A stretch of 63,040 nt of DNA, the filler included, from Octopus bimaculoides (lineage: Eukaryota), in assembly GCF_001194135.2 (NCBI RefSeq). It is 4 parts of 4 records of this genome, joined end to end, with 100 filler letters (N's around TTAATTAATTAA, not from the genome) between each part and the next. Parts side by side here need not be neighbours in the genome. Positions count along the whole stretch, not along the records: positions 28,044 to 40,275 come from NC_069001.1; positions 40,376 to 59,593 come from NC_069000.1; 2 more parts are not named here. One strand, given 5' to 3'. The notes under the pieces are model-generated. The model saw nothing but the letters and a program-made list of their open reading frames with translations. It did not search any database and had not been told where the DNA came from. Both the position numbers and the translations under genes were made by a program. The first letter of the stretch is position 1; each line of letters starts with the position of its first letter. Below are positions 35,901-48,041 of this stretch, one piece after another.

Positions 35901-38652
35901 NNNNNNNNNNNNNNNNNNNNNNNNNNNNNNNNNNNNNNNNNNNNNNNNNNNNNNNNNNNNNNNNNNNNNNNNNNNNNNNNNNNNNNNNNNNNNNNNNNNN
36001 NNNNNNNNNNNNNNNNNNNNNNNNNNNNNNNNNNNNNNNNNNNNNNNNNNNNNNNNNNNNNNNNNNNNNNNNNNNNNNNNNNNNNNNNNNNNNNNNNNNN
36101 NNNNNNNNNNNNNNNNNNNNNNNNNNNNNNNNNNNNNNNNNNNNNNNNNNNNNNNNNNNNNNNNNNNNNNNNNNNATATATACGACAGGCTTCTTCCAGT
36201 TTCCGTCTACCAAATCCACTCACAAGGCTTTGGTCGGCCCGAGGCTATAGCAGAAGACACTCGCCCAAGGTGCCACGCAGTGGGACTGAACCCGGAACCA
36301 TGTGGTTGGTAAGCAAGCTACTTACCACTGAAAGGGATGAAAAGCAAAGTCGACCTCGAACTCTGAATATAAGAACGGACGAGATTCTGTTAAGCATATT
36401 ATCGTGAGTGCCATCGATTCTGATGATGATGATGATGATAATAATAATAATAATCGATGTGTTTCCTTACTTCGGACGTTGCGCTGACAATTTCCCATTT
36501 CTCATTAGGTACGTAACCATCCTCGATGATAGGACGAAATTTCGAGGTGAGATTCATTATGGAAGCGTCGTACACCCAGGATCCATATGAAAGTTTACAT
36601 GTCTGGATGTCAAAAGGGAATTTGGACATATCAAATGCACACACTGCTGAATGAGTGACTGGTGGAATGTAAGTTACTTCCCCAGAGCTTTTCAAATATA
36701 CGTTAATATCAAGTGTTGGAGGATTTCTCACACCTCGGCTGATAAAACAAAATAAAACGAAAATCATTGAAGTGTTAATAATACAGTTAGAATTATATTG
36801 TGTGTGTGTGCTACCAGTTTTAGTTATATTTGAAAGACACTGCTCTACAACGACCAGGTTTCATTAGAAAGTGAATAGTTTCACACTTTCAATTTGAACC
36901 AAAATTACAAAGTGTTGCATTACGAGAATTAACCGGTTACTTTAGTAGTAAAAAAGAGTTGTGCCAAAAACACAGTCTGTTTGGTAGCCTATNNNNNNNN
37001 NNNNNNNNNNNNNNNNNNNNNNNNNNNNNNNNNNNNNNNNNNNNNNNNNNNNNNNNNNNNNNNNNNNNNNNNNNNNNNNNNNNNNNNNNNNNNNNNNNNN
37101 NNNNNNNNNNNNNNNNNNNNNNNNNNNNNNNNNNNNNNNNNNNNNNNNNNNNNNNNNNNTATATAAAATTTATTAATGAGGGTAGAAATTGATATCAATC
37201 AATTAAAACCAGTGGTCTAGCATATTAAAAAAATCCGAAGATTAAAATTATATTACATACAAAATAAGAGGAATGACCAGCAAATGTGGATTCCTAAATG
37301 CTAGAAATAGATGCCGAATCATCTAACCACGAAAAAAATATGTTCTCAGTAGAAAATTTAGCGACGCAACAAACTGTAAACGAGCAGGACAAATGAAAAA
37401 TACTAAATTAAAAAACGATTAACCTACGTACCATAGTTTCACCTGTTAAAATTTACATAAGTAAATATCTGCAGGATCGTCAGCCTAAGTCTGTCTCTTT
37501 GAGATGCAATACACAGAACTAGACACAAGCCATACACCCGTAAGTGAACACGTGTAGAGATTCTGCTAATTACATTCAGTGTATCCTTTCAAATGTCTTC
37601 AAATTTTTGTCGTGGTTAGATGATTCAGCATCTATTTCTAGCATTTAGGAATCCACATTTGCTGGTCATTCCTCTTATTTTGTATATATATACATGTACA
37701 TAAGTGTACTCTTGTGTCTATGGATACGTAAGTGTATTTATGTAAGTGTATACATGTGAATTTTGACTTACTAATTGTAAAGGATTATATCAGGAGTCCA
37801 AATGTATTTGGCAGGCAAACGGATGTCCTCCATGTTGTCATAATCACTGGCGTTCCAACTTAACGAAACATCGGTCCATTTTTGTGAAAAATAACCGTCG
37901 ACTGTAAACTTCCTTTCTTGTTCGTCCTATTTGAAAGAAAAACGAAGAAAACGGGAATACGAACAAAGAAATGAATTTGGAGGAGATAAAAAAAAAAGGA
38001 ATAAAGAAGAAAAAGAAGTGTCAGCCGTAGGGGAAGTAGTAGTAGTAGTTCTTGTTGTTGTAGTAGTAGTAGCAGTAGCAGCAATAATTGTAGTAGTAGT
38101 AGTAGTAGTAGATGTAGGAGGAGAAGGATGGAGGTAGATTTAGAAGGGAGGTGTAAGGGATGTGGTGCGAGGAGGAAGTGAAAGAAGAAATAAAAGAAAA
38201 GAAAAGAAAAGAAAAGAAAAGAAAGCATAAAAAGAAAAGAGAAAAATAAGGAAGAAAAAAAAGAAAACAAAAAGAAGAATTATATCAGACACTTAGTATT
38301 TGTATTGAGTTCTTTTTTCAGTTAATGGTCGTTGTTTGAAGCATATTATATCATTTCTCGTAACTATATAGAAAATGAGACATACAGTAAAGTAAGGGAG
38401 AGAGGAAGTGAGAGAGAGAGAGAGAGAGAGAGAGAGAGAGAGAGAGAGAGAGAGAGAGAGAGAGAGGGGGGACAAAGAAAGGATGGAAAATTGTGATTAC
38501 CATTTGAATATTGTTGACGTAGAGATCCAAAGTCACGTTAACAGCTGCATTCGCGTCAGGTAAGACAAGAGTGTTGGACGTTTCAAGAAGATGCTTAATC
38601 AGACGTCCCCGTGATGCTGACGACGCTGTATCCGATTTTCCATTAGACAAAG
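32751..38652 (-). CDS. Cys-loop ligand-gated ion channel, nicotinic acetylcholine receptor alpha-like subunit (partial; 7 exons visible)
   Basis: Spliced translation gives WTPDIILYN (loop A), Cys-loop CAFDMSKFPFDIQTC, GSWVYD (loop B), YSCCIQSY (loop C), M1-M3 and the MA helix AEWQQMA. All six introns are GT-AG with matching phases (0,2,0,1,1,0). Signal exon and M4 not visible. Confidence 0.96.
33696..33814 (-). CDS. nAChR-like exon F (M3 and MX: TYHVLTLILVALSVILSIFILNIYNRGPRRKKMPQILRT)
   Basis: Acceptor ttttttcag, donor gtaaga; 119 nt, phase 1 to 0; matches the nAChR post-M3 motif NI..R.P....MP.. Confidence 0.95.
34173..34211 (+). ncRNA. Hammerhead relic (antisense, in nAChR-like intron)
   Basis: TCGC-CTGAAGA-TATCATTGGCAT-GAAAC(TCGA)ATT-GCGA: core and stem I intact; stem II and G16.2 degenerate. 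Confidence 0.5.
34482..34568 (-). CDS. nAChR-like exon E (M2 and M2-M3 loop: GIALVVISVIQINVISNWLAKSQAGNPVI)
   Basis: Acceptor tttttctag, donor gtaagt; 87 nt, phase 1 to 1; continues ITLG and ends in PVI like the canonical VPLI. Confidence 0.9.
34958..35138 (-). CDS. nAChR-like exon D (loop C YSCCIQSY, M1, M1-M2 linker)
   Basis: Acceptor tctttgtcacag, donor gtatgt; 181 nt, phase 0 to 1; LRR..Y....IVP (M1 proline) and FLLPSESKERITL. Confidence 0.96.
36471..36738 (-). CDS. nAChR-like exon C (Cys-loop, loop B)
   Basis: Acceptor tgttttatcag, donor gtaagg; 268 nt, phase 2 to 0; C-x13-C with FPFD, then GSWVYD and PNEKWEI. Confidence 0.97.
37160..37685 (-). mobile_element. Hammerhead-containing foldback element, family X copy 1 (arms 37257-37331 / 37611-37685)
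   Basis: 75-bp arms with one mismatch; the post-HHR region is homologous to 47877-48041, and the arm and tail to 62270-62410. Confidence 0.75.
37421..37491 (-). ncRNA. Type I hammerhead ribozyme with extended stem II, intronic and sense to the nAChR-like gene
   Basis: GACTTAGG-CTGACGA-TCCTG...ATTTAC(TTAT)GTAAAT...CAGGT-GAAA-C(TATG)G-TA-CGTAGGTT: 7 of 8 stem I pairs, U:U at the stem II closing pair, GUA site. Confidence 0.72.
37772..37926 (-). CDS. nAChR-like exon B (DEQERKFTVDGYFSQKWTDVSLSWNASDYDNMEDIRLPAKYIWTPDIILYN)
   Basis: Not in the ORF track; translated by hand. Acceptor ctttcaaatag, donor gtaagt; 155 nt, phase 0 to 2; WxD..W...Y..I.LP...IW.PDI.LYN motif. Confidence 0.95.
38501..38652 (-). 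CDS. nAChR-like exon A (mature N-terminus: LSNGKSDTASSASRGRLIKHLLETSNTLVLPDANAAVNVTLDLYVNNIQM)
   Basis: Acceptor ttttaacag, donor gtaatc; 152 nt, phase 1 in, phase 0 out; N-terminal helix and beta1 pattern of pLGICs. Confidence 0.88.
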
Positions 38653-47632: not shown

Positions 47633-48041
47633 TTTTTATATATAATGTTGACCACTAACGTGGACATTCAATGTGCTAGGAATAGATCACATCTTGTGTC
47701 TATTAAGACCTAAATTGTTCTCAAAACGAAATTTAGCGGAGTACCAAAGTGTACCAAAGTGCAGCCTGATTCGTAATGTAACCATAATCCTCAGAAGCGG
47801 ATTATGGTTACATTACGAATCAGGCTGAAGAGAAACAGACAGTCGGTAAGATTGTTAATTTTGAAACCGGTCCCTGTTTAATAATGATTTTTTTCGGTAA
47901 TTTTAAATGTCTTGCCCGCTTACGCTTTGGTATTCCGCTAAATTTCGTTTTGAGAACAATTTAGGTCTTAATAGACACAAGATGTGATCTATTTCTAGCA
48001 CATTGAATGTCCACGTTAGTGGTCAACGTTATATATAAAAA
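47633..48041 (+). mobile_element. Hammerhead-containing foldback element, family X copy 2 (arms 47633-47753 / 47921-48041)
   Basis: ~120-bp near-perfect arms; inner 29-bp perfect hairpin 47762-47827; HHR at 47821-47876. Confidence 0.78.
47821..47876 (+). ncRNA. Type I hammerhead ribozyme with extended stem II
   Basis: CAGG-CTGAAGA-[GAAAC...GTTAATTTT]-GAAA-CCGG-TC-CCTG: perfect 4-bp stem I, palindromic stem III ACCGGT, GUC site; stem II imperfect and AU-rich. Confidence 0.75.

Follow-up and report, generated by a model that had tools for sequence, protein, structure and literature searches.

Foldback sequences with hammerhead motifs in Octopus bimaculoides are probably truncated insertions of Penelope-like elements

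Three related sequences in Octopus bimaculoides, here called copies A, B, and C, are probably 5'-truncated insertions of the 3' end, or pseudo-long terminal repeat (pLTR), of related endonuclease-bearing Penelope-like elements (PLEs), each with an inverted arm made anew when it inserted. They lie in a window (the whole stretch of DNA analyzed) of 63,040 nucleotides (nt) joined from four parts of RefSeq assembly GCF_001194135.2, which is AT-rich and includes 10,952 Ns along with numerous microsatellites and short repeats. An inverted 5'-truncated copy, a hammerhead, a one-sided tail, and a (TA)n target make up the published anatomy of insertions by endonuclease-bearing PLEs, and the hairpin therefore probably arose as a by-product of each insertion rather than as a fixed foldback RNA design. 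A first-pass annotation, made by a model from the sequence, had linked copies A and B to PLEs, and that link is supported by the match to published insertions. Its proposal of a single fixed foldback layout, with a long double-stranded RNA (dsRNA) stem around a ribozyme, found no support, as six fold-back points differ and copy C lacks a hammerhead. The parts of the copies are given below.

Copy A, 37160-37692, minus strand
37600-37692, plus: inverted, 5'-truncated, tail-less arm; its outer end adjoins a degenerate TA-rich microsatellite
37490-37602, minus: family sequence upstream of the hammerhead, covered by other copies; 37602 is the 5' truncation point
37423-37489, minus: type I hammerhead motif, supported by the descriptor, dimer fold, and majority bases of other copies
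37484-37489/37423-37428, minus: hammerhead stem I
37477-37483, minus: core CUGACGA
37441-37476, minus: stem II region, 36 nt
37437-37440, minus: GAAA
37431-37436, minus: stem III; predicted cut between 37429 and 37428
37260-37422, minus: pLTR-like region from the hammerhead to the proximal 3' end, by homology to copy B; its distal part serves as the right inverted-repeat arm
37160-37259, minus: one-sided tail of about 94-95 nt, ending in TA at an assembly gap; 75% identical to the copy C tail

Copy B, 47629-48137, plus strand
47629-47753, minus: inverted, tail-less arm; its outer end adjoins (TA)n
47762-47827: inner hairpin with a stem of 29 bp; it is a further inverted piece, located where the two copies meet head to head
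47821-47876, plus: type I hammerhead motif, by descriptor and folding, with 4-bp stem I CAGG/CCUG
47825-47831, plus: core CUGAAGA
47832-47862, plus: stem II region, 31 nt, followed by GAAA at 47863-47866
Stem III, plus: the palindrome ACCGGU; predicted cut after 47872
47877-48040, plus: pLTR-like region to the proximal 3' end, 66% identical to A
48041-48137, plus: one-sided tail of at least 97 nt, running into an assembly gap; aligns to the A and C tails

Copy C
62264-62454, minus: short stub without a hammerhead; inverted arm about 40 nt long (hairpin 62375-62454), tail about 110 nt long and ending in (TCTA)n/(TA)n

In all three copies, an inverted 5'-truncated copy is joined head to head to a direct copy, the inverted arm has its outer end at a shared family position beside a TA-rich microsatellite, and a tail extends past the inverted repeat on one side only (about 94-95 nt in A, at least 97 nt in B, and about 110 nt in C). 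The shared layout described earlier for A and B was recovered, together with all of the motifs quoted for them: their arms are 94.7% identical over 94 nt (37600-37692 vs 37249-37342, by inverted-repeat comparison) and 96% identical over 125 nt (47629-47753 vs 47921-48045), respectively, and a hammerhead motif is found in both. No shuffle among 100 folded as stably as copy A (z = -18.6) or as copy B (z = -31.0). Copy B had been taken to end at 48041, which missed the tail; the family reaches the gap at 48137. No conserved fold of the tail was found, the three tails folding differently.

The regions downstream of the hammerhead, noted previously as homologous, are 66% identical between A and B over 172 columns (E = 3e-11), with an alignment score of 121 against a maximum of 55 among 300 shuffles. 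The third remnant suggested at that time is copy C, 75% identical to A over 141 columns (E = 2e-19). An nhmmer search of the window with the three-copy alignment returned no fourth copy (best other E = 1.9). At the sequence level, copies A, B, and C belong to related families and not to a single young one. Identity is 95-96% between the arms of a copy and 61-75% between copies, which, taken with the differing junctions, argues that each insertion produced its own inversion. The identity of the arms could also come from gene conversion, which would not account for the varied junctions.

These traits have counterparts among described PLEs. PLE insertions are heavily 5' truncated, frequently bear an inverted truncated copy at the 5' end and a tail of 30-40 bp at one end, carry hammerheads in their pLTRs, and are biased toward microsatellites (PMC8557442), and palindromes at the inverted junction have been explained by self-priming (PMC3846280). 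Insertions of the endonuclease-bearing groups Penelope/Poseidon, Neptune, Nematis, and Hydra resemble ours in the head-to-head inverted truncated copy, the one-end tail, the hammerhead within the repeat, the junction palindrome (in copy B), the microsatellite target, and the heavy 5' truncation (PMC8557442, PMC3846280). The tail differs, at 30-40 bp there and about 95-110 nt here (PMC8557442), and no open reading frame (ORF) was seen in copies A, B, and C. The flanks of all three copies are microsatellite or TA rich, a trait weakened as a PLE signature by the abundance of microsatellites in this genome.

The hammerheads themselves are also of a known kind. Metazoan PLE hammerheads are mostly single motifs that have been attributed to truncated PLEs and have low activity as dimers, and the motifs here resemble them in being type I, single, and dispersed, with a short stem I (4-5 bp), a longer-than-usual stem II, and a small palindromic stem III suited to dimers (PMC4209133). 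Stem II is 7-8 bp in those motifs, whereas the corresponding region here spans 31-36 nt, and the 10.1-11.1 pair, a conserved G-C there, is G.U in copy B and U.U at the base of stem II in copy A (PMC4209133); U.U at that base is reported for a weakly active axolotl motif (PMC7229834).

The anatomy above was observed in the assembled copies; the enzymatic steps that may have produced it are modeled on published PLE biochemistry. The protein of an anole PLE cuts and extends both strands of AT-rich DNA, and two internal reverse transcriptase (RT) starts on its RNA bound the tail (PMC11167929). This element, PAc (Poseidon, Anolis carolinensis), resembles the octopus copies in having two 3' ends that bound a tail, an AT-rich target, a hammerhead upstream of the ends, and no RNA sequencing (RNA-seq) ends at the cut site (PMC11167929). 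Its two starts lie close together, whereas the ends here are about 100 nt apart, and its ORF begins inside the hammerhead, whereas no conserved frame was found downstream of the hammerhead here (PMC11167929). By analogy, an RT/GIY-YIG protein would nick TA-rich DNA, and complementary DNA (cDNA) would be started at two internal RNA sites, with the tailed copy coming from the distal start and the inverted copy from the proximal start or a snap-back. The two cDNAs, or a single cDNA plus its snap-back copy, would stop early and be joined head to head. Copy B, the inverted part of which omits about 47828-47917, would involve an extra template jump of about 90 nt. In the RNA of the parent element, the hammerhead would cut as a dimer by means of its palindromic stem III.

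Public sequencing runs carry many further copies. Of 24 runs listed, 20, drawn from 11 studies and carrying four organism labels, contained part of the stretch compared, none of them as much as half of its words, and two DNA runs gave 2,531 and 2,647 contigs on 466 bases. Summed depth was near 0.4-1.0 million at the 3' part, compared with 17-202 for the single pieces listed, which points to a very abundant family, contig depth being no copy number. Loose ends just before 37261 consist of (TA)n and were seen in all four runs considered (21 and 13 RNA reads; 13 and 18 DNA contigs), whereas further records continue past this proximal end through the tail. The reads define the proximal end only, the distal end lying at the edge of the stretch compared. 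Strand changes occur at six of the 11 listed joints, no two of them in the same place (37264/37300, 37264/37342, 37285/37589, 37300/37336, 37336/37355, and 37432/37512); the joint with the most reads omits the hammerhead, as copy C does; the 37336/37355 joint omits it. Upstream, 16 contigs in each DNA run continue past 37602 with shared sequence, indicating that copy A is 5' truncated. At least two different upstream sequences were seen, and depth drops sharply on the upstream side of the hammerhead.

Searched with a strict type I descriptor, the window gave three motifs (37483 on the minus strand, 47825, and 14488), whereas 200 dinucleotide shuffles averaged 0.02 and never exceeded 1, a contrast somewhat inflated by the descriptor having been composed after the motifs were seen. 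The hammerheads announced for A and B stand as regards their cores, their long stem II, and the palindromic stem III of B; copy A, by comparison, has stem mismatches, namely, a G.G in stem I and one nonpalindromic base in stem III. The majority bases of other copies lack these two defects and give a canonical core. Among the majority bases (those of other copies placed on A, from 40 of 122 difference rows), that at 37435 makes stem III the palindrome ACCAUGGU (depth of 404,126/405,619 in run X4 and 196,122/196,216 in run X2; 31/31 and 28/31 RNA reads), that at 37479 gives CUGAUGA (depth of 59,666/82,375 in X4; 22/34 and 11/28 RNA reads), and that at 37485 pairs stem I (depth of 3,528/3,673). 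Summed contig depth at the hammerhead exceeds that of its immediate neighbors, by a factor of 13-26 for the downstream segment and 36-39 for the upstream one. We read this peak as conservation of the hammerhead among divergent subfamilies, to which the divergence of copy A itself contributes, and such conservation argues for importance to the parent element. A looser descriptor match at 38617 was dropped as poor.

Within the stubs, the hammerhead is predicted to be a passenger, weak or blocked. Constrained folding put the cost of the active fold of the copy A monomer at 5.5-6.1 kcal/mol, and for two copies of this motif, the best predicted dimer fold was a double hammerhead. For copy B, the cost was 5.6 kcal/mol without the inverted part and 19.8 kcal/mol with it, since in the predicted fold stem I and the core CUG are taken up in pairing with the inner hairpin (47762-47827), which would leave the motif sequestered.

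Several results weigh against a PLE origin of the copies. No RT or GIY-YIG gene linked to the family was found in the window, and family patterns matched no loci in three collection scans, two of metagenomes and one of viral contigs. The tail is about three times the published length. In the anole study, no difference in RT start was seen between the two strands (PMC11167929), so that study does not by itself account for the presence of the tail on the direct copy in three of three cases. Target-site duplications are unreadable, with A and B stopping at gaps and C lying between microsatellites. As for the ribozyme, Rfam hammerhead models matched neither A nor B and were absent from the best 150 of 201 rows for the window, the double hammerhead is not the best dimer fold for the copy B motif, and RNA read ends in the two RNA runs did not pile up at the predicted cut, 37429/37428, a weak test given that standard RNA-seq would rarely reveal such ends. 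Contig depth is not copy number, and the dips beside the hammerhead in part reflect copy A's own divergence.

Elsewhere in the window, a decayed GIY-YIG endonuclease-like frame, of PLE type by eye, occupies 4161-4460 (minus strand). Its first ESM Atlas match scored 0.94, and 18 of 30 matches fell in GIY-YIG clusters; there was no Pfam match, no longer homologue (0 of 132 candidates passing), and no hammerhead after it. The remnant suggests, by its sequence, that endonuclease-bearing PLEs are present in this genome; it lies more than 30 kb from the copies and is unlinked to them, which also counts against the PLE reading.

The strongest alternative, which we nevertheless consider unlikely, keeps the main idea of the first-pass annotation, minus the fixed hairpin: an ORF-less, nonautonomous element, a few hundred bases long, that carries a promoter and hammerhead of its own together with a PLE-type 3' end and is mobilized in trans by a PLE protein. 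Insertion would proceed as set out above, and only the parent RNA would differ. Such a dedicated parent keeps some probability, since neither an RT nor an endonuclease gene was found linked to the family. It would account for the lack of an ORF in all three copies, as the first-pass annotation had it, and for the steep drop in depth and multiple sequences upstream of the hammerhead. A reading frame downstream of the hammerhead was rejected on account of stops in A and B and the lack of third-position bias; in the ungapped 99-nt A/B block, the 39 mismatches fall 15/13/11 by codon position. A by-eye search for an endonuclease C terminus upstream of the A hammerhead gave nothing convincing. pLTRs can act in trans (PMC3846280), and a preprint derives animal retrozymes from pLTRs (10.64898/2026.07.22.740005). 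Against this alternative, the family continues upstream of the A junction in 16 contigs per DNA run, and no fixed 5' end appeared among the loose ends listed. Moreover, ORF-bearing PLEs are normally heavily 5' truncated (PMC8557442), and in O. vulgaris, 190 PLE families account for 6.83% of the genome (PMC13282606). In its fullest form, this alternative would describe a very abundant, protein-free PLE parasite with a short RNA, a long-stem-II dimeric hammerhead, and two RT starts about 100 nt apart (three times the known spacing) that scatters hairpins in introns, a picture that we regard as doubtful.

A non-LTR retrozyme, meaning tandem units of 150-450 bp whose hammerhead-cut monomers circularize, is very improbable. 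Animal retrozymes are likewise short, noncoding, likely PLE dependent, and equipped with a type I hammerhead, here with a palindromic stem III, and monomeric retrozyme copies exist (PMC7229834; 10.64898/2026.07.22.740005); they are, however, tandem repeats giving circular RNA, whereas copies A, B, and C are single, inverted, and tailed, and the inverted arm and one-sided tail are PLE traits. The earlier suggestion of a retrozyme-like family found no support in tandem units: no head-to-tail unit was seen in the window, and none of the 11 joints listed runs back as a tandem or circle junction would, bar one contig with family-like letters between its sides. The family does appear in RNA, but at a low level and in both orientations. 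Two raw RNA runs chosen by species label, of which about 6% each (about 1.9 and 1.7 billion letters) was covered, yielded 251 and 151 family reads, mostly 90-95% alike to copy A and so read as deriving from other copies. Orientation was balanced inside the repeat and skewed (about 10 to 2 reads) both in the tail and in the sequence preceding the hammerhead, where the prevailing reads would be element-sense if the library is stranded; the pattern fits passive read-through. No circle joints were found among the joints listed in the two RNA runs, a library type that may miss circles. Places with A>G plus T>C (36 and 33) compared with C>T plus G>A (27 and 25) were counted without matched DNA, and RNA editing was set aside as not interpretable from them.

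Equally hard to sustain is a foldback DNA transposon of the miniature inverted-repeat type with long terminal inverted repeats that captured a hammerhead: its long, nearly perfect inverted repeats at TA-rich sites would fit, but the element reaches about 100 nt past one arm only, arm lengths (about 40, 94, and 125 nt) and fold-back points vary, and many copies end singly at the proximal site. Least credible of all are assembly or library artifacts (fold-back chimeras beside gaps), suggested by A and B both stopping at N gaps and by no listed contig spanning the whole stretch, but contradicted by several substitutions between arms, some of CpG type, by opposite-strand joints seen in both RNA reads and DNA contigs, the latter from two organisms, and by an unrelated family at 14399-14655 with the same layout. 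The retrozyme, DNA transposon, and artifact explanations each fail a direct test.

The layout of the copies is already published for PLE insertions, and only two features depart from the descriptions consulted, a tail about 100 nt long and an extended stem II; the finding is therefore mainly one of annotation, of an abundant PLE family leaving stub hairpins in introns and between genes. Our literature search found no account of this family, with repeat libraries (Repbase, Dfam, and those for O. vulgaris), bioRxiv supplements, and subscription journals outside its range, and the family may already be annotated in such libraries. Three family motifs had no matches in the supplement of PMC8557442, which covers other clades and has incomplete long cells. 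If the tail marks two RT starts, as in the anole element, their spacing is not fixed at 30-40 nt, and the long tail offers a test case for the origin of the one-sided tail and the inversion. The importance of the hammerhead to the parent is open in the literature, where its function has been called unclear (PMC8557442) and it is dispensable in vitro (PMC11167929). Should the protein-free parasite prove real, intronic hairpins could be dsRNA substrates for editing or silencing in host pre-mRNAs.

Copy A may have an intronic setting. A Cys-loop receptor exon lies at 36435-36740 on the minus strand (Pfam Neur_chan_LBD, E = 1.7e-17; best PDB match, nicotinic alpha-7). Another exon, probably the one upstream, was spotted by eye at about 38500-38652 on the same strand. 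Lying between this exon and the probable upstream one, in their orientation, copy A would be transcribed in sense inside an intron.

Two further hammerhead-like motifs were noted. The element at 14399-14655 (plus strand), a second, unrelated family with the same layout, has arms of about 82 nt with 2 mismatches and meets a gap at 14656; its direct copy begins about 9 nt upstream of the core, and its compact type I hammerhead at 14481-14527, with palindromic stem III ACUCGAGU, is the cleanest motif in the window, the best predicted dimer fold for two copies of this motif (14488) being a double hammerhead. The other, at 17129-17185 (minus strand), has a longer stem III and a bulged stem II, was found by the loose descriptor only (17175), and is cut by a gap; it lies about 230 nt downstream of a LINE-like (long interspersed nuclear element) remnant (zf-RVT, 17410-17871, E = 2.4e-5, below the Pfam cutoff).

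Next to copy B, a large imperfect inverted repeat at 46968-47503 (74% over about 570 columns, with a purine/pyrimidine-rich center) stops about 125 nt before the copy; it is not homologous to the copy A/B/C family and is possibly a foldback DNA element. An identical 146-nt stretch at 59859-60004 and 60951-61096 flanks an N gap and is probably an assembly overlap. Lastly, tRNA genes at 8623-8705 (plus) and 26314-26396 (minus) are 92.9% alike, with one called Ser(TGA) and the other Leu(TAA), which is probably explained by an anticodon change in a Leu copy or by a pseudogene.

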